DNA from: a virus
Lineage: Duplodnaviria > Heunggongvirae > Uroviricota > Caudoviricetes
IMG/VR virus record: IMGVR_UViG_2778261646_000002
Coordinates: 1-10,667 of that record
DNA: 10,667 nucleotides
Strand: one strand, 5' to 3'
This document shows positions 3,606 through 10,667 of this stretch, in pieces. The number at the start of each line of letters is the position of its first letter. Within the stretch, counting starts at the first letter, position 1. A program made the translations under genes and the position numbers. The notes under the pieces were generated by a model. It did no database searches and was not told the DNA's origin. It worked only from the letters and a program-made list of their open reading frames with translations.

Positions 3606-3620
3606 GCTTTTTTATACTAA
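3606..3620. other. Phage lambda att core (15-bp common overlap sequence) at the attL prophage-host junction
   Basis: Exact GCTTTTTTATACTAA. The left flank (CCGTTGAAGCCTGC) matches the bacterial B arm and the right flank (GTTGGCATTATAAAAAAGCATTGCTTATCAATTTG...) matches the lambda P' arm, recalled from the lambda attP sequence. Confidence 0.92.
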
Positions 3621-3700
3621 GTTGGCATTATAAAAAAGCATTGCTTATCAATTTGTTGCAACGAACAGGTCACTATCAGTCAAAATAAAATCATTATTTG
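3621..3700. promoter_or_regulatory. Lambda P' arm with IHF H' site and Int arm-type binding sites P'1-P'3
   Basis: IHF-consensus-like TATCAATTTGTTG at about 3645-3657. Three tandem arm-type-like elements follow: AGGTCACTAT, CAGTCAAAAT and AAATCATTAT at about 3667-3697, matching the lambda arm-site consensus (C/A)AGTCACTAT. Confidence 0.8.
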
Positions 3701-4764
3701 ATTTCAATTTTGTCCCACTCCCTGCCTCTGTCATCACGATACTGTGATGCCATGGTGTCCGACTTATGCCCGAGAAGATGTTGAGCAAACTTATCGCTTA
3801 TCTGCTTCTCATAGAGTCTTGCAGACAAACTGCGCAACTCGTGAAAGGTAGGCGGATCCCCTTCGAAGGAAAGACCTGATGCTTTTCGTGCGCGCATAAA
3901 ATACCTTGATACTGTGCCGGATGAAAGCGGTTCACGACGAGTAGATGCAATTATGGTTTCTCCGCCAAGAATCTCTTTGCATTTATCAAGTGTTTCCTTC
4001 ATTGATATCCCGAGAGCATCAACATGCAATGCTGTTGGGATGGCAATTTTTACGCCTGTTTTGCTTTGCTCGACATAAAGATATCCATCTACGATATCAG
4101 ACCACTTCATTTCGCATAAATCACCAACTCGCTGCCCGGTAACAACAGCCAGTTCCATTGCAAGTCTAAGCCAACATGGTGATGATTCTGCTGCTTGATA
4201 AATTTTCAGGTATTCGTCAGCCGTAAGTCTTGATCTCCTTACCTCTGATTTTGCTGCGCGAGTGGCAGCGACCGGGTTTGTTGTTATATGGCCTTCAGCT
4301 ATTGCCTCTCGGAATGCATCGCTCAGTGTTGATCTGATTAACTTGGCTGACGCCGCCTTGCCCTCGTCTATGTATCCATTGAGCATTGCTGCAATTTCTT
4401 TTGTGGTGATGTCTTCAAGTGGAGCATCAGTCAGACCCCTCCTTATTGCTTTAATTTTGCTCATGTAATTTATGAGTGTCTTCTGCTTGATTCCTCTGTT
4501 GGCGAGAATTTTTTCGTAGCGATCAAGCCATGAATGTAACGTAACAGAATTATCACTGTTGATTCTCGCTGTCAGAGGCTTGTGTTTGTGTCCTGAAAAT
4601 AACTCAATGTTGGCCTGTATAGCCTCAGTGATTGCTATCCTCCTGTCTCGGCCTAATCCAAACTCTTTACCCGTCCTTGGGTCCCTGTAGCAGTAATATC
4701 CATTGTTTCTTATATAAAGATTAGGGGGTAAATCCCGGCGCTCATGACTTCGCCTTCTTCCCAT
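3694..4764 (-). CDS. int: Lambda integrase (tyrosine site-specific recombinase), 356 aa
   Basis: Translation matches lambda Int as recalled, from MGRRRSHERRDLPPNLYIRNNGYYCYRDPRTGKEFGLG to RDDRGREWDKIEIK. Tyrosine-recombinase catalytic region present (HELRSLSARLY ... LLGHKSDTMASQY). The stop lies about 74 bp from the att core, as in lambda. Confidence 0.97.
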   Translation of the reverse strand: MGRRRSHERRDLPPNLYIRNNGYYCYRDPRTGKEFGLGRDRRIAITEAIQANIELFSGHKHKPLTARINSDNSVTLHSWLDRYEKILANRGIKQKTLINYMSKIKAIRRGLTDAPLEDITTKEIAAMLNGYIDEGKAASAKLIRSTLSDAFREAIAEGHITTNPVAATRAAKSEVRRSRLTADEYLKIYQAAESSPCWLRLAMELAVVTGQRVGDLCEMKWSDIVDGYLYVEQSKTGVKIAIPTALHVDALGISMKETLDKCKEILGGETIIASTRREPLSSGTVSRYFMRARKASGLSFEGDPPTFHELRSLSARLYEKQISDKFAQHLLGHKSDTMASQYRDDRGREWDKIEIK

Positions 4765-4960
4765 TTCTGATCCTCTTCAAAAGGCTACCTGTTACTGGTC
4801 GATTTAAGTCAACCTTTACCGCTGATTCGTGGAACAGATACTCTCTTCCATCCTTAACCGGAGGAGGGAATATCCTGCATTCGCGCACCCATCGACGAAC
4901 TGTTTCAAGGCTTCTTGGGCGTCGCTGGCGTGCGTTCCACTCCTGAAGTGTCAAGTACAT
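4742..4960 (-). CDS. xis: Lambda excisionase Xis, 72 aa
   Basis: Translation from the internal Met, MYLTLQEWNARQRRPRSLETVRRWVRECRIFPPPVKDGREYLFHESAVKVDLNRPVTGSLLKRIRNGKKAKS, matches lambda Xis. The 3' end overlaps the int start by 23 nt, as in lambda. The longer 102-aa ORF to 5050 is an upstream in-frame extension. Confidence 0.93.
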   Translation of the reverse strand: MYLTLQEWNARQRRPRSLETVRRWVRECRIFPPPVKDGREYLFHESAVKVDLNRPVTGSLLKRIRNGKKAKS

Positions 4961-4986
4961 CGCAAAGTCTCCGCAATTACACGCAA

Positions 4987-5008
4987 GAAAAAGCCGCATT
5001 GATGCGGC
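4987..5008 (-). terminator. Candidate intrinsic terminator on the minus strand just upstream of xis
   Basis: Stem GCCGCA (4993-4998), loop TTGA, stem TGCGGC (5003-5008). An A-run at 4988-4992 on the plus strand gives a U-tract after the hairpin on the minus strand. Confidence 0.4.
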
Positions 5009-5077
5009 GATGGTAGGTCTGGATATCATTGAGCAATGAACAGGCCTCATCGAGTGTGAGGCGGTGTTATTTCATGG

Positions 5078-5338
5078 TTAGTCCTTGCGTAGCTCGCTGA
5101 TTCTTCTGTAAGTCTCTGGTGCTTTGTTTCCGTGTATCTTCATTTCAAACTTCAACAGAGCAACGAGAGAATCCCATTCGTTGAGGATGCCTTTGAATGC
5201 CGGAACGCGCTTTGCAACCTTGTCGAATGAATCTCTGATTTCTGGAATCTGCTCAACAAGTGCAACGCATCGCCGGAAGTCTGCTGCGTCATGTGGAGCG
5301 CCGAAGTGATGACCATAGATATTTTTTTCAGTCCACAT
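5078..5338 (-). CDS. Hypothetical phage protein, 86 aa
   Basis: ORF with protein-like composition (MWTEKNIYGHHFGAPHDAADFRRCVALVEQIPEIRD...). No obvious Shine-Dalgarno before ATG 5338. An overlapping alternative ORF in another frame (start ATG 5421 with a GGAG Shine-Dalgarno, end 5152) competes for this region. Confidence 0.45.
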   Translation of the reverse strand: MWTEKNIYGHHFGAPHDAADFRRCVALVEQIPEIRDSFDKVAKRVPAFKGILNEWDSLVALLKFEMKIHGNKAPETYRRISELRKD

Positions 5339-5447
5339 GCGATTGAGGCAAGAGTTGCGCTACTGATGCCGACATCGCCAGTTGATTGCCATTTCAAAAC
5401 CTTCATAGCCAAATCTGACATTTCTTGTCTCCAATAAAAAACCGCCA

Positions 5448-5615
5448 TCAGGCGTCTTGGTGTTCTTTCAGTTCTTCAATTCGAATATTGGTTACGTCTG
5501 CATGCGCTATCTGCGCCCATATCATCCAGTGGTTATAGCAGTCGTTGATGTCCTCTGCTTCGATAACCCTGTCGAATGGCTCTCCATTCCATTCACCTGT
5601 GACTCGGAAGTGCAT
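5448..5615 (-). CDS. Hypothetical small phage protein, 55 aa
   Basis: ATG at 5615-5613 preceded by GGAG 8 nt upstream. Translation MHFRVTGEWNGEPFDRVIEAEDINDCYNHWMIWAQIAHADVTNIRIEELKEHQDA. Shorter than the 60-aa cutoff of the ORF track. Confidence 0.45.
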   Translation of the reverse strand: MHFRVTGEWNGEPFDRVIEAEDINDCYNHWMIWAQIAHADVTNIRIEELKEHQDA

Positions 5616-5626
5616 TTATCATCTCC

Positions 5627-5653
5627 ATAAAACAAAACTCGCCGTAGCGAGTT
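5627..5653 (-). terminator. Candidate intrinsic terminator on the minus strand between the DUF551 gene and the 55-aa ORF
   Basis: Stem AACTCGC (5636-5642), loop CGTA, stem GCGAGTT (5647-5653). On the minus strand it is followed by TTTTGTTTTAT. Confidence 0.45.
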
Positions 5654-5715
5654 CAGATAAAAGAAATCCCCGCGAGTGCGAGGATTGTTATTCACCTTTG
5701 ACGGCAAGTTGCAGG

Positions 5716-6243
5716 TTAGCCACGGTTAACCTCCTGCGGCGGTTCTGGCAGCGGCATCCAGTGGGTTACGTCATCCAAGATATTTCCTGATAAATATGTG
5801 AAAGCTCTATATTTTTTGTAATCAATTGGACTCATTACCCAGTTCCAATATGCTGCCACTATTTGACCTTGACTAAATGCCAGTAACATTTTGGTGTCGT
5901 CCGGCATTCGCTCACTACAGCTTATCCAACCATCCGGAGTTACCGGCACTGGCTGAGCGGTATAAAGCGGTGTTATATCTGCCCGAAAATTACATGCTTT
6001 ATGCAGCCGCACCCCCCGTTCGACTTCTGCTTTGTCAGGATACATACCAGTGAACGTGTTATATTCACGGTCAATTTGCGTGAAGGTTACCTTCCACGCC
6101 ACCGGCTCTGCCTCAAGCGATGCCAGAGCAATTCGTGCCAGTTCTTCCGCTTCTTCTGCTGGCAGTACAACGTTGCTACCAGGTCTGTATGTTTCGCGCC
6201 ACTGCTTGATTGTCAGCAGTCGCTCTTTGGTAATAGTGGTCAT
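5716..6243 (-). CDS. DUF551-domain prophage protein, 175 aa
   Basis: C-terminal region WISCSERMPDD...VAAYWNW...VTHWMPLPEPP fits the DUF551 pattern common in enterobacterial prophage early regions. The ATG overlaps the upstream stop (ATGA) and has an AAGGA Shine-Dalgarno. Confidence 0.8.
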   Translation of the reverse strand: MTTITKERLLTIKQWRETYRPGSNVVLPAEEAEELARIALASLEAEPVAWKVTFTQIDREYNTFTGMYPDKAEVERGVRLHKACNFRADITPLYTAQPVPVTPDGWISCSERMPDDTKMLLAFSQGQIVAAYWNWVMSPIDYKKYRAFTYLSGNILDDVTHWMPLPEPPQEVNRG

Positions 6244-6755
6244 GCCGCGTTTCCTTCTTTCTTATTAACAATTACACCGTCATATATTTCATTAAGGTGC
6301 CCTCTCAACTCCATGCGCCTTAATGCAGATAACATGTAATCGCATTCAACCTGCTTATTTCCAGTAAATGGCTTATCGTCAGGATTACCCCAACAGCAAT
6401 TACCCTTGGGCCATCCATGTACTTTCCGTACTCTTCCGTTAACAACGTGAAGTAATCCCCAGCCGGGAGGTAAATCCTCAACTGAAATAATTTCCGGCTC
6501 ACTAATAAAGAATCGCCAGTCGCCCATGCCAAGTGAGGGATTTTTACGGAAACGCTTTTTTCTATCTGCCAACAAGTCAGCACGAGAACACTTCGCCTCT
6601 ATCAGGCATGATGCTGAATTTCTGAATCCCATAGCATCTGGCTGTTCTCCGGTACTGGTTACAGCTATAAAGCGGTCATGAAAACAGACCTTGAACCCGT
6701 TGCGCTTAAGGAACTTGTGCGCAATCTGACAGAGTTCGCTGTGTGTTAACGCCAT
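6240..6755 (-). CDS. Hypothetical protein with a PD-(D/E)XK nuclease-like motif, 171 aa from MALTHSELCQ
   Basis: Preferred start is ATG 6755, with AAGGAG 6 nt upstream and 1 nt after the stop of the Ea22-like gene. Contains GEQPD ... LIEAKCS, a PD-x(n)-E-x-K arrangement, and a Cys-containing C-terminal half (GNCCWGNPDD, VECDY). Functional call is motif-based only. Confidence 0.65.
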   Translation of the reverse strand: MALTHSELCQIAHKFLKRNGFKVCFHDRFIAVTSTGEQPDAMGFRNSASCLIEAKCSRADLLADRKKRFRKNPSLGMGDWRFFISEPEIISVEDLPPGWGLLHVVNGRVRKVHGWPKGNCCWGNPDDKPFTGNKQVECDYMLSALRRMELRGHLNEIYDGVIVNKKEGNAA

Positions 6756-6756
6756 A

Positions 6757-7350
6757 TCACTCTCCTTTGATGCGAATGCCAGCGGCACGGGAATCATTCC
6801 ATCGCTTTACTTCTTCACGAATTACGTCAATGCATTCTTTCGAATCCATTAGGTAATCTTCATCAAAAAGACGTTCCTGTTCGTTTTCTATCGCAACAAT
6901 GATTGCTTCAACTAACTTTTGTACCTGAGAACCACTTTCTAACTCTGCTATGCGCTTACTCCCATCCGAGATAACGCCCTCGTAATACTCACGCTGCTCG
7001 TTGAGTTTTGATTTTGCCAACTCCAGTTGTTTTGTTAGTTCCGCAATACGGCAAACATCGTTGATACGCGTTTCCTCTAATGCGTTGATCTCATCCAACA
7101 ATGCCAGCGCAACATTTGGATTAAAAGCAGCAATAAATTCAGCGTTTGCATAAGCCTGAACATCTGTTTCAACCAGGCAGTTAACATGACATTCTGCAAT
7201 CACGCCACCGGGTTCTCCTTTCCATTTTTGGCAAACAAAAACTCCTGTTAAATTGCCGTGCTGGTTAACAGATGTATGCCCTACGATGTAGCTCCCTTTC
7301 GTTGCCTTTTCTGCCGCATCACGCAGTGCCTGATAATTAATTTCGCTCAC
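6757..7350 (-). CDS. Ead/Ea22-like phage protein, 197 aa (GTG start)
   Basis: N-terminus MSEINYQALRDAAEKATKG resembles the Ea22-like family of lambdoid prophages, with a coiled-coil-like central region. GTG start at 7350 with GGAGGA Shine-Dalgarno; GTGA overlap with the upstream stop. Confidence 0.7.
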   Translation of the reverse strand: MSEINYQALRDAAEKATKGSYIVGHTSVNQHGNLTGVFVCQKWKGEPGGVIAECHVNCLVETDVQAYANAEFIAAFNPNVALALLDEINALEETRINDVCRIAELTKQLELAKSKLNEQREYYEGVISDGSKRIAELESGSQVQKLVEAIIVAIENEQERLFDEDYLMDSKECIDVIREEVKRWNDSRAAGIRIKGE

Positions 7351-7571: not shown

Positions 7572-7987
7572 TGGTTGCCTCCTTTGCGAAGCTGGGCGGC
7601 TAACTCATCACATATGTGCGTCAAAGAACAAAGTTTGATTGATGGATGTTCGCGCATCATCTCTACTCCCTGCGCCCGCACTTCAGACAGGAAAGCATCG
7701 GTGGCTGGCATATTTCCTGTTGCCTTCATTGCCTCCAAAATAACCAGAACGCCATCTCGCCCAACCACCTCAGCGATAACCTCGGTGTTGTCGCCAACAA
7801 CATCGCAGAATGCCTGAACTGCCTTACGAGCCAGCGCACTCTCCGCCGCCAGCGCCGCGCACTTGGCCTCCGCTTCAGCAAATTTACGCACCAGATATTC
7901 AGCGTTTGTTTCGTTAACCTTTAAATCGCTTGGGATGCATTTACCTTTCAGGAATCCATCCATCTCAATTAGTGACATTTGTTTCAT
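7568..7987 (-). CDS. Hypothetical phage protein, 139 aa
   Basis: ATG 7987 overlaps the upstream stop (ATGA) with a GGAG Shine-Dalgarno. Ala-rich, predicted helical ([26 protein letters not shown]). No family recognised. Confidence 0.65.
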
Positions 7988-8148
7988 TTCTTCCCACTCC
8001 GCAACATCGCATTCAGATATTTGTTTTGATTCACTGACGGAAAAGAATTTCTCTTTAGCAATTCCTCTCTCGATGGCATTGGCTTTACGCGCTGGCGAAT
8101 AATCATTTCTGCCGGAAGAATGCCGGGGTTGTATGCAAGTCCTCTCAT
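7984..8148 (-). CDS. Hypothetical small phage protein, 54 aa (MRGLAYNPG...); possible longer forms start at 8166 or 8184
   Basis: Within the 101-aa ORF 7984..8289, the ATG at 8148 is the only start with a Shine-Dalgarno (GAGGAA) and lies downstream of the stop of the preceding gene at 8159-8161. Longer forms would overlap that gene. Confidence 0.45.
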
Positions 8149-8158
8149 GGTAAATTCC

Positions 8159-8455
8159 TCAGTCATTACTGATAGCGCCATAGCGTGATCGATAATTACG
8201 CAGCCGCGGGTCGATATATTCAGGGAAGTGGGTATATGTGGCTTTGCGGAATGGTCGGATTGATGTTTCGTTTGTTCGGTCCTTCTCATTTTTTAACGCG
8301 AGTTGTATATCGCGTCGGTACATCCGTTCTGCTTTTGTTTCTGGTGGCAGATCGATAAACGTGTCGAAAATGTTTTTGATATTTTCCAGCACCTCCGCCT
8401 TGGAGCTACCGGAGCAATTGCGCGGGTCATCCGCACCATACAGAGGCGCTGGCAT
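8159..8455 (-). CDS. Hypothetical phage protein, 98 aa
   Basis: ATG 8455 with an AAGG Shine-Dalgarno-like sequence. Charged, protein-like composition. Follows the DUF669-like gene after a 23-bp gap. Confidence 0.5.
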
Positions 8456-8478
8456 AATGGGAGCCTTATTTTCAGTAA

Positions 8479-9066
8479 TCAGAAAGCAGGGTAATCGTTC
8501 TTGCTGTAACCATAATCATCTGCATGATTCTGGCTTACGTTTTTAGAGCGATTGTCTTTATCTTTGAGATTGGCAACCATGTTGGCGATAGTTTCTGGTT
8601 GCTTGCCTTCTGCCTTTTCTTTAAGGGTTTGACCTGTTTGTGCAATAAACGGGATGCGTATTTCCATCTGGTAGTTGTCTGCGCCAGTCTTTTTGTTTGT
8701 GGTTAATACTTTCTGGAGCACTAACCCGATTTTCTTTCCATGAAATTCAGGTGCAACAAATTTACTGGCGGAAACCATATGCTGCGTTAATTGTCCAATC
8801 CCGGCACACCCCATCATGGCGTGAACGACATTTGCGCCAAATTTGTTTTCCGTTCCGTCATTTTTCTGAACACAGACGCTAAGATATTGGATTTTACGTC
8901 CGTCGTCGGATTCTCCAGAAAACTCAATAAATTTGGCTCCTTTTTCTGATTGCTTTAGTTCTGCTTCAGTAATGGTAATGATATGGGCGCCAGTTTCGTT
9001 AATAAAACCACCTTGCCCTGCGGTCAGTGCTGCTTCTTCGTTATAAGTAAAAATCACGTTGCTCAT
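8479..9066 (-). CDS. DUF669-like protein, putative ssDNA-binding partner of Sak4, 195 aa
   Basis: Start ATG 9066 overlaps the Sak4 stop (ATGA) with an AAGGA Shine-Dalgarno. Gene position and size fit the protein that commonly follows Sak4-type ATPases. The C-terminus ...DDYGYSKNDYPAF resembles the aromatic tail of SSB proteins. Family assignment is from memory. Confidence 0.65.
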   Translation of the reverse strand: MSNVIFTYNEEAALTAGQGGFINETGAHIITITEAELKQSEKGAKFIEFSGESDDGRKIQYLSVCVQKNDGTENKFGANVVHAMMGCAGIGQLTQHMVSASKFVAPEFHGKKIGLVLQKVLTTNKKTGADNYQMEIRIPFIAQTGQTLKEKAEGKQPETIANMVANLKDKDNRSKNVSQNHADDYGYSKNDYPAF

Positions 9067-9743
9067 GCGGCGTTTTCCTTAATTTGATGAACATTATTGA
9101 TGCCGTAGTAATCACAAACAGTGGCATCGACGAAAGAGAGATCGTTATCAATCTCATTGGAATCAAACATTCCCATTGGGGATTTGACAGTGTCTGCACC
9201 GTTGTTTTTCGTGGTGAAAAAGAACTGGTCATCGCGGGTAAGAGTGCGAAGAACTATAGTAAACATGCCTTCGACAGTGATTTTCTCGTCCAGCATTTTG
9301 CCGATAGTTTTCATTTTCACGCGCCCCATAGGGGTTTCTTCGGTATGTGCAAGAAAATAGACTCTCAGGTCATCAGGTGCATCCTGTGCAGCCTTAATCA
9401 CCTCCCATGCGTGGCGGCCTATCTCAGTAAATTTATCAAACGATTTTTCTTCTGAGCGGCGCATAAACTCATTGCTCATCACATACTGGAAGTCATCAAC
9501 AATAACGATTCTTTTTCCGTATTCGTGAGCACGCTTAATTACAGCAACTATTACGTCCCATTTGTCAGTGGTAACTACGGTTCCTTTTTTTGCTCTGGCA
9601 TCCCATGCAAGCCAGTCTTTTGATTTAAATGGTAGCGGCTTGCCTATTGGTTTTATAAGTATTGCTTCCTCTGGATTGATATTTCTCATGCTGGTTGATT
9701 TTCCGGTGCCAGATTCACCGAGTATTAATGTCGCAGTTCCCAT
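9063..9743 (-). CDS. Sak4-type RecA-like ATPase / single-strand annealing protein, 226 aa
   Basis: N-terminal Walker A GESGTGKST and Walker B RIVIVDD. Size of about 226 aa is typical of the core-only RecA-like Sak4 proteins of lambdoid and lactococcal phages. GAGG Shine-Dalgarno before ATG 9743. Confidence 0.85.
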   Translation of the reverse strand: MGTATLILGESGTGKSTSMRNINPEEAILIKPIGKPLPFKSKDWLAWDARAKKGTVVTTDKWDVIVAVIKRAHEYGKRIVIVDDFQYVMSNEFMRRSEEKSFDKFTEIGRHAWEVIKAAQDAPDDLRVYFLAHTEETPMGRVKMKTIGKMLDEKITVEGMFTIVLRTLTRDDQFFFTTKNNGADTVKSPMGMFDSNEIDNDLSFVDATVCDYYGINNVHQIKENAA

Positions 9744-9751
9744 AATTTGCC

Positions 9752-9940
9752 TCAGAATGGTAATTCGGATGGGCAGGAAAGAAATTCGCGCTCATTCATG
9801 CGCTCTCTTTGCGCCTGCCATAAACAAAGTTGTTTCTTTGATTTATCTCCCGCTTTACGCCAGTAACGAGCCTCAGCAATGTGATATTCTCTTTTTAATC
9901 GACTTAACTCTGGAGTTTTCGCCAGTTCTACCGGAATCAT
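9752..9940 (-). CDS. Hypothetical small phage protein, 62 aa
   Basis: ATG at 9940 overlaps the kil stop (ATGA) and is preceded by GGAGGT. The upstream in-frame ATG at 9952 lies inside kil and lacks a Shine-Dalgarno. Confidence 0.5.
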   Translation of the reverse strand: MIPVELAKTPELSRLKREYHIAEARYWRKAGDKSKKQLCLWQAQRERMNEREFLSCPSELPF

Positions 9941-10050
9941 TTTGACCTCCATTTTCTGTAGGCTTCTACGGCTTCACGAAACATCTTTTCATCGCCAATA
10001 AAAGTGGCGATAGTGAATTTAGTCTGGATAGCCATAAGTGTTTTATCCAT
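9937..10050 (-). CDS. kil: Kil-like host cell-division inhibitor, 37 aa
   Basis: MDKTLMAIQTKFTIATFIGDEKMFREAVEAYRKW closely matches the N-terminus of lambda Kil as recalled. AGGAG Shine-Dalgarno present. Overlaps the cIII 3' end by 8 nt. Confidence 0.75.
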   Translation of the reverse strand: MDKTLMAIQTKFTIATFIGDEKMFREAVEAYRKWRSK

Positions 10051-10183
10051 TTTTGGGAACTCCTGGCTGATTAAGTATGTCGATAAGGCGTTTCCATCCA
10101 TCACGTAATTTACGTGTGATTCGTTCAAGTAAAGATTCGGAAGGGCAGCCAGCAACAGGCCACCCTGCAATGGCATATTGCAT
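10043..10183 (-). CDS. cIII: CIII-like protein (FtsH inhibitor that stabilises CII), 46 aa
   Basis: MQYAIAGWPVAGCPSESLLERITRKLRDGWKRLIDILNQPGVPKNG matches lambda CIII as recalled, with a shorter C-terminus. AAGGAG Shine-Dalgarno upstream of ATG 10183. The longer 80-aa form in the ORF track is an upstream extension. Confidence 0.85.
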   Translation of the reverse strand: MQYAIAGWPVAGCPSESLLERITRKLRDGWKRLIDILNQPGVPKNG

Positions 10184-10246
10184 GGTGTGCTCCTTATTTA
10201 TACATAACGAAAAACGCCTCGAGTGAAGCGTTATTGGTATGCATAT

Positions 10247-10270
10247 AAAAAGGCCCTCACACTGGAGGGC
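10247..10270 (-). terminator. Candidate intrinsic terminator on the minus strand upstream of cIII
   Basis: Stem GCCCTC (10253-10258), loop ACACTG, stem GAGGGC (10265-10270). An A5 run at 10247-10251 gives a U-tract after the hairpin on the minus strand. Confidence 0.5.
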
Positions 10271-10332
10271 AAAGAAGATTTCCAATAATCAGAACAAGTC
10301 GGCTCCTGTTTAGTTACGAGCGACATTGCTCC

Positions 10333-10360
10333 GTGTATTCACTCGTTGGAATGAATACAC
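10333..10360. repeat. Perfect 9-bp inverted repeat with a 10-nt spacer
   Basis: GTGTATTCA (10333-10341) and TGAATACAC (10352-10360). No flanking T-tract on either strand. Confidence 0.5.
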
Positions 10361-10374
10361 AGTGCTTCTCTGTG

Positions 10375-10493
10375 CTAAATAATTAAATCATATTCTGATT
10401 TGGTTAGTTTATACGCACCTCCTCTGGTGTAATATGCAAATCTGTCTTTGCTTCCATCAGAATTGTATACCCACCCACCAAATGGAAAGATAG
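10375..10493 (-). pseudogene. 3' remnant of a phage gene truncated by the IS insertion
   Basis: Two minus-strand frames are open from the IS junction: one ends at a stop at 10404-10406 (...ILMEAKTDLHITPEEVRIN*), the other at 10375-10377 (...WVYNSDGSKDRFAYYTRGGAYKLTKSEYDLII*). No start codon region is present on the window side of the IS, and the correct frame is unresolved. Confidence 0.3.
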
Positions 10494-10667
10494 TGAACCG
10501 CCCCGGGTTTCCTGGAGAGTGTTTTATCTGTGAACTCAGGCTGCCAGATCATCGTTTCCGATGGAAGCATAATAAGCTTTTTCTGCTTCTGCCGGAGGAG
10601 TATGGCCCAGCCTTTCCAGCAATCGTCGATTGTTATACCAGTCCACCCACGTGAGTGTGGCCAGTTC
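10494..10667 (-). mobile_element. IS629-like (IS3-family) insertion sequence, right end (partial; continues beyond the window)
   Basis: Plus strand from 10494 reads TGAACCGCCCCGGGTTTCCTGGAGAGTGTTTTATCTGTGAACTCA, the reverse complement of the IS629 right terminus as recalled, with the TG...CA ends typical of IS3-family inverted repeats. Followed by the transposase 3' end. Confidence 0.85.
10536..10667 (-). CDS. IS3-family transposase (OrfB), C-terminal 43 codons (partial)
   Basis: Minus-strand translation ...ELATLTWVDWYNNRRLLERLGHTPPAEAEKAYYASIGNDDLAA* carries the conserved W-x-x-WYN-x-x-R-x-x-x-x-LG C-terminal signature of IS3-family transposases. Stop codon at 10536-10538. Confidence 0.85.
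   Translation of the reverse strand, partial: ELATLTWVDWYNNRRLLERLGHTPPAEAEKAYYASIGNDDLAA

Follow-up and report, generated by a model that had tools for sequence, protein, structure and literature searches.

The window, meaning the whole 10,667-nucleotide stretch of DNA analysed here, carries a lambdoid prophage that begins at the lambda attachment site and is cut short by an insertion sequence. [quoted passage not shown] The genes kil and cIII adjoin the module. The features, in order of position, are:

3606-3620, plus strand: lambda att core GCTTTTTTATACTAA, an exact match (0 expected by chance) at the junction of prophage and chromosome (ybhC)
3694-4764, minus strand: lambda-type integrase gene (352 of 356 residues identical to lambda Int)
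4742-4960, minus strand: lambda-type excisionase gene (71 of 72 residues identical to lambda Xis)
7984-8148, minus strand: DUF2737 gene, ortholog of HK620 hkaI, just downstream of abc2 (PF10930, 1.8e-31; 98% to HkaI)
8159-8455, minus strand: abc2, anti-RecBCD protein of the P22 Abc2 family, in an allele with a divergent N-terminal part
8479-9066, minus strand: ssb, ortholog of HK620 hkaK ("SSB-2"/DUF669-type), 195 residues, a non-canonical SSB and the cognate partner of Sak4, with the tail NDYPAF
9063-9743, minus strand: sak4, ortholog of HK620 hkaL, predicted 226-residue core-only RecA-like, ATP-dependent single-strand annealing protein
9752-9940, minus strand: hkaM ortholog, 62-residue orphan that heads the HK620 recombination module
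9937-10050, minus strand: kil, host division inhibitor (Lambda_Kil, 5.7e-21; 31 of 34 residues identical to lambda Kil; 97% to HK620 kil)
10043-10183, minus strand: cIII, 46-residue short form as in HK620 (Lambda_CIII, 4.7e-30; 46 of 46 residues identical to lambda CIII; 98% to HK620)
10232-10213 and 10270-10253, minus strand: two intrinsic-terminator-like hairpins found by terminator scan, upstream of cIII
10494-10667, minus strand: end of an IS3-family insertion sequence, whose terminal sequence TGAACCGCCCCGGG... begins at 10494; it cuts the early-left operon short on the upstream side of cIII

The window corresponds to positions 820956-831623 of Escherichia coli O7:K1 CE10, to which it is 100% identical except for a single-base length difference. 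An earlier note on this DNA, made from the letters alone, described a mosaic in which lambda-like int, xis, kil, and cIII flank a Sak4-type module that stands where lambda carries exo, bet, and gam. The identity counts listed above bear out the likeness of these four genes to lambda, and lambda homology is limited to them. None of the profiled open reading frames from int to cIII matches the exo, bet, or gam families, and the module indeed takes their place. The mosaic is composed of lambda-like int and xis plus an HK620-like block. Specifically, kil and cIII form one contiguous HK620-like block with the module: positions 7874-10365 align with HK620 3876-6367 (NC_002730) at 94.8% nucleotide identity, ungapped, over 2.5 kb. 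The two hairpins coincide with the HK620 terminators tL2B (6213-6234) and tL2A (6245-6272), at an offset of 3998 to the window. At the other end of the prophage, homology to the attP of phage HK629 begins at the lambda att core (3606).

At 9063-9743 on the minus strand, open reading frame, motifs, and family match agree in assigning the Walker A/B RecA-like Sak4 ATPase that had been proposed. The Walker A motif (GESGTGKS) spans residues 9-16 of the 226-residue protein and the Walker B motif (IVIVDD) residues 79-84, and G9, G14, K15, D83, and D84 are unchanged across 39 homologs. The protein matches PHROG 2872, "Sak4-like ssDNA annealing protein," over its full length (3.9e-108). It is 99.6% identical to HK620 HkaL, with the single substitution D43E; the codons that differ between the two genes comprise 10 synonymous changes and 1 non-synonymous change. 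From Pfam, AAA_24 scores 30.2 bits (gathering cutoff 27), and AAA_22 scores 28 bits, just over threshold. NCBIfam holds no model for Sak4, SSB, Abc2, or HkaM.

Queried against PDB chains, whether by single sequence or by a profile of 39 sequences, neither Sak4 nor the SSB returned a significant match, and fold comparison was the sole approach informative about PDB relatives of the two proteins. The predicted Sak4 model has a RecA-core fold and lacks the additional DNA-binding domain that RecA and Rad51 carry at the N- or C-terminus. Its top match is a solved Sak4, with RAD51 paralogs, RecA, and RadB coming next. The staphylococcal phage Sak4 (ORF016, PDB 8rc5), archaeal RadB, and the eukaryotic RAD51 paralogs share only 9-18% identity with the window protein over the aligned regions, and its sequence profile does not pick them up.

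The HK620 ortholog is well characterised. HkaL, the Sak4 of HK620, is a monomer whose binding to ssDNA depends on ATP (Hutinet et al. 2018, PMC5928155). It can anneal complementary strands and is active in oligonucleotide recombineering, and it does not carry out strand exchange (PMC5928155). From this near-identity we infer that the window Sak4 would likewise bind ssDNA and anneal it in an ATP-dependent manner. About 80% of sak4 genes have a cognate ssb adjoining (PMC5928155), and sak4 of the window is one more such case, with the hkaK ortholog directly downstream. The recombineering test that the earlier note proposed for Sak4 and its DUF669 partner was published in 2018 for essentially these proteins (PMC5928155).

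The sak4 and ssb genes overlap by 4 nucleotides, ATGA, in which the stop codon of sak4 lies over the start codon of ssb. Stop/start overlaps of this type typically point to translational coupling. The ssb product is 97.4% identical to HkaK across all 195 residues, with five substitutions, and it matches PHROG 743, "single strand DNA binding protein," at 1.6e-66. Its predicted model resembles an OB barrel, and the structural matches of that model are mostly ssDNA-binding OB folds. [quoted passage not shown] The HK620 SSB elutes at approximately 95 kDa versus a monomer of 21.3 kDa, which suggests a tetramer (PMC5928155). By its identity to HkaK, the window SSB should bind ssDNA as well.

These results refine two statements that had been made about the partner of Sak4. 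The description "DUF669-like" accords with the NCBI name of close homologs, "DUF669 domain-containing protein," and with the DUF669 label given to HkaK-type SSBs (PMC5928155), but the Pfam-A DUF669 profile (PF05037) gives no hit to the window protein at any E value up to 10. Among 39 SSB homologs, that profile gives sub-threshold hits in 8, the best at E = 0.019. The remark that no canonical OB-fold SSB is visible next to sak4 stands in the sequence sense, in that the Pfam SSB profile (PF00436) does not match the 195-residue protein, but that protein is itself the cognate SSB. The module therefore does have an SSB, namely the "DUF669-like partner." HkaK-type SSBs are implied to be an independent fold (PMC12315714). 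PrgE of plasmid pCF10 (PDB 8s4s), a non-canonical OB-fold DNA-binding protein, bears a moderate likeness to the predicted model of the window SSB; the two share 13% sequence identity, and the context of PrgE is a conjugative plasmid. An SSB-2 variant that is 84% identical to the window SSB adjoins an exonuclease gene, not sak4, in many Stx phages (TL-2011c, phiON-2011, ArgO145, and others). This SSB type is therefore not confined to Sak4 partners.

[quoted passage not shown] Its final hexapeptide (8479-8496, minus strand) reads NDYPAF versus NDYPPF in HK620. The P-to-A change invites scrutiny because it falls within the hexapeptide shown to be essential in HK620. We take the penultimate residue to be the equivalent of E. 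coli SSB Pro176, the site of ssb-113. Across the family, at least 90% of homologs end in this F, and position -2 is variable. The notion that the change inactivates the SSB was set aside: many natural homologs have a residue other than Pro at -2 and keep the F.

Two alternative identities for this gene pair deserve consideration. One makes the 226-residue protein a P-loop/AAA ATPase of a general kind (helicase loader, packaging protein, or regulatory ATPase, for example) with no part in recombination; databases label it just "AAA family ATPase" or "ATP-binding protein," its AAA_24 and AAA_22 matches are weak (30 and 28 bits), and its sequence profile retrieves no solved structure. We regard this idea as virtually untenable for a protein that is 99.6% identical to one with demonstrated ATP-dependent annealing and recombineering (PMC5928155), that belongs to the PHROG Sak4 family at 3.9e-108, that has a solved Sak4 as its closest structure with RAD51 paralogs, RecA, and RadB next, and whose gene sits where the early-left operon carries its recombination functions, beside those for the SSB and Abc2. 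Profile, identity, and fold all place it with Sak4/RecA-family recombination proteins, away from the non-recombination ATPases among which the earlier note had allowed that it might fall. It is likewise highly improbable that the 195-residue protein is a DUF669 accessory factor and that the module depends on host SSB. That possibility draws on the silence of Pfam, which gives neither an SSB nor a DUF669 hit for the window protein, and on the lack of a sequence match to any solved structure. Against it stand 97.4% identity to HkaK, which binds ssDNA and stimulates Sak4 via its C-terminal tail (PMC5928155), the PHROG 743 "SSB" match at 1.6e-66, and a predicted OB-like barrel with a disordered acidic/aromatic tail ending in F, for which ssDNA-binding OB folds dominate the structural hits.

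The module extends beyond this pair. The earlier note had placed it at 8479-9743, a span that does hold sak4 and ssb, but abc2 (8159-8455) and hkaM (9752-9940) belong to it too. Abc2 aligns by residues 1-98 with positions 1-97 of the 97 in the Pfam profile PF11043 (Anti-RecBCD_p2; 2.7e-37) and matches PHROG 656 (6.9e-47). Its amino acid identity to HK620 HkaJ is 67%, with 62-69% for P22- and HK620-type alleles, and its closest match in the phage collection stands at 87.8%. We note that the abc2 allele is itself mosaic: its C-terminal third differs very little from that of HK620 Abc2, and the N-terminal half is strongly divergent. The divergent part has 52% nucleotide identity over 8274-8373. 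A structure of an N-terminal fragment of P22 Abc2 has been deposited as PDB 8B1T (PMC12315714). By analogy, the window Abc2 may interact with RecBCD through RecC, which is the least secure of our inferences, and its putative anti-RecBCD role would be analogous to that of lambda gam.

The HkaM ortholog, whose coding coordinates were taken from the CE10 RefSeq annotation, is 98.4% identical to HK620 HkaM and matches PHROG 1723 at 3.3e-33. For "recombinase," the label that PHROG attaches to this family, we found no supporting basis, and we do not adopt it. Together, sak4 and ssb alone yield the recombineering level of all three surrounding genes (PMC5928155). HkaM is apparently dispensable in that assay, because sak4 and ssb suffice.

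Very probably, the locus carries an HK620-type recombination module of a lambdoid prophage at att-lambda, which would operate by the mechanism of HK620 and P22 and is probably silent in CE10. What can be read directly is which genes are present and in what order, their motifs and predicted folds, and how nearly identical the products are to characterised proteins; the activities in the scheme that follows derive from 97-99.6% identity. In an intact phage, the module would be transcribed from pL with N antitermination. Abc2 would bind RecC of the host RecBCD enzyme and thereby block activation at Chi, following the P22 paradigm. In the P22 model, Abc2 action on RecBCD yields processed DNA ends for phage recombination. 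The phage SSB would coat the ssDNA, and its exposed C-terminal tail would let Sak4 bind ssDNA that is SSB-covered. Sak4, a monomer that consists of the RecA core and lacks a secondary DNA-binding domain, would bind ssDNA with ATP only, and in its ATP-bound form it would anneal complementary strands without strand exchange. The expected consequence is single-strand-annealing recombination that leads to concatemer formation and mosaic exchange, the role of Red-beta, Exo, and Gam in lambda.

In CE10, the early-left operon is interrupted. The CE10 RefSeq record annotates an IS3-family transposase gene at the matching position, directly upstream of the module and on its strand. Upstream of cIII, about 310 bp separate the start codon from the element, and homology to both HK620 and HK629 ends at 10365. 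Beyond the IS3-family element (locus L004, 11378-19276), CE10 carries a 5'-truncated P22-type gene 16, Arc/Ant genes, and a frameshifted tailspike gene. Because the truncated gene 16 comes directly after the insertion sequence, the element has no pL, nutL, or N and no immunity, replication, lysis, or head genes. The CE10 prophage is a defective remnant of roughly 15 kb at the lambda attachment site. We propose that the IS3-family element and a deletion would together have removed these genes. "Lambda-like prophage" was rejected as a description for the source genome, in which the surviving late genes (gene 16, Arc/Ant, and tailspike) are of the P22/HK620 type. A crude consensus scan of 7900-10667 found no sigma-70-like site on the minus (coding) strand. 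The intact module is probably transcriptionally silent in CE10, because pL, nutL, and N are lost, two terminators lie from the insertion sequence to cIII, and no promoter-like site is present; this is the weakest step of our account. Read-through into the module may occur from the same-strand transposase gene.

Other parts of the window also show interrupted or altered genes. At its left end (1-180), the window opens within a copy of IS1 by which ybhJ is truncated at its 5' end (in RefSeq, ybhJ is "incomplete; missing N-terminus"); homology of the window to most other E. coli genomes starts at approximately position 110. At 5078-5448 on the minus strand, a gene of the phrog_1229 family is split over overlapping open reading frames (5152-5448 and 5078-5338), whereas CE10 RefSeq has a single 114-residue coding sequence there that is one base longer than the window, which suggests a frameshift or a homopolymer sequencing difference. 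RefSeq annotates the minus strand of 6240-7350 as decayed, listing an Ead/Ea22-like gene that is truncated and a hypothetical gene with a frameshift; the window nonetheless has long open reading frames there, of 185 residues (phrog_9263/631) and 197 residues (Ead/Ea22).

Silence has its own rival, namely that the module is no silent fossil and has been retained and expressed for the benefit of the host or of resident phages, much like Rac recET after sbcA activation; transcription that leaves the IS3-family element is one way in which it could be driven. The genes sak4, ssb, abc2, and hkaM are full-length, whereas their neighbours are annotated as frameshifted or truncated and the phrog_1229 gene is split; a transposase gene of the IS3 family lies directly upstream on the same strand; and Sak4 differs from its HK620 counterpart by 10 synonymous changes versus 1 non-synonymous change. 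Selection acting in ancestral, functional phages would, however, be just as likely to leave this substitution pattern. Moreover, two intrinsic terminators stand from the insertion sequence to cIII, nutL and N are gone, and the coding strand has no promoter-like site. Finally, the exact configuration is found in two complete genomes only, which suggests recent decay and not long retention. We consider retention with expression unlikely; if true, it would give the strain a RecA-independent annealing pathway or allow the rescue of incoming lambdoid phages. A further elaboration strikes us as decidedly unlikely: the stranded module would have survived because it remains useful to the host or to co-resident lambdoid phages, would be expressed via IS3 read-through as a domesticated RecA-independent annealing pathway or as a recombination "helper" of incoming phages, and would have the variant NDYPAF tail on its SSB and an Abc2 whose divergent N-terminus is tuned to host RecBCD.

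If, as we favour, the module is a silent HK620-type one, the locus is a natural case in which a recombination module has been left complete inside a defective prophage, and it is a potential gene donor to incoming phages. Its discovery value is small: the proteins are essentially those of HK620, the mosaic occurs in HK629, and the module type appears in surveys of lambdoid phages. There is a practical gain for annotation, in that the RefSeq labels "ATP-binding protein," "hypothetical protein," or "DUF669" can safely become Sak4 and phage SSB.

The module invites comparison with lambda Red. The exo-bet-gam genes of lambda occupy the same slot of the pL operon, from kil/cIII to the ea/xis/int region, and the overall job is the same: phage-encoded single-strand-annealing recombination combined with RecBCD neutralisation. 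However, no protein of the window module is homologous to any Red protein. The window annealase is predicted to be an ATP-dependent RecA-core protein, whereas that of lambda is a Rad52-like ring. Unlike lambda Red, the window module has no phage exonuclease, as is also true of the HK620 and P22 modules (PMC12315714), and it would require a dedicated phage SSB. The anti-RecBCD proteins differ as well: Gam obstructs the site at which DNA enters RecBCD, whereas Abc2 attaches to RecC and prevents activation at Chi (PMC12315714).

By its sequence, the module is the HK620-type hkaM-sak4-ssb-abc2 module, already known and set in a known mosaic, that of HK629; it is nothing new. It is present at approximately 97% nucleotide identity in many Stx1a- and Stx2a-converting phages, and 180 of 5426 complete E. 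coli genomes (about 3%) contain it at a coverage of at least 80%. A 2025 survey of 325 lambdoid phages likewise treats HK620-type Sak4, "SSB-2," and Abc2 as standard parts of shuffled Rec modules (PMC12315714). HK620 shares with the window the order kil-hkaM-hkaL(sak4)-hkaK(ssb)-hkaJ(abc2)-hkaI and equal gene lengths, and the matching block includes kil, cIII, and the tL2 terminators. By its coordinates, HK620 also has a 4-nucleotide sak4/ssb overlap; the letters ATGA were read in the window only. The two elements differ in that HK620 has another integrase, annotated as IntS, whereas that of the window is lambda-type at att-lambda, in the abc2 allele (67% amino acid identity), and in the SSB tail (NDYPAF versus NDYPPF). 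Unlike HK620, the window element is a truncated remnant that has neither pL nor N.

The closest parallel to the arrangement as a whole comes from HK629 (Lambdavirus, JQ182735), in which lambda-type int (98.9%) and xis (100%) are combined with hkaM, sak4 (99.6%), ssb (97.4%), abc2, and kil, replacing the red genes. JEP4 is a mosaic similar to HK629, and its Sak4 is 100% identical to that of the window. In both phages, the accessory genes from abc2 to xis differ from those of the window, and both are intact, with their pL, N, immunity, and replication regions present.
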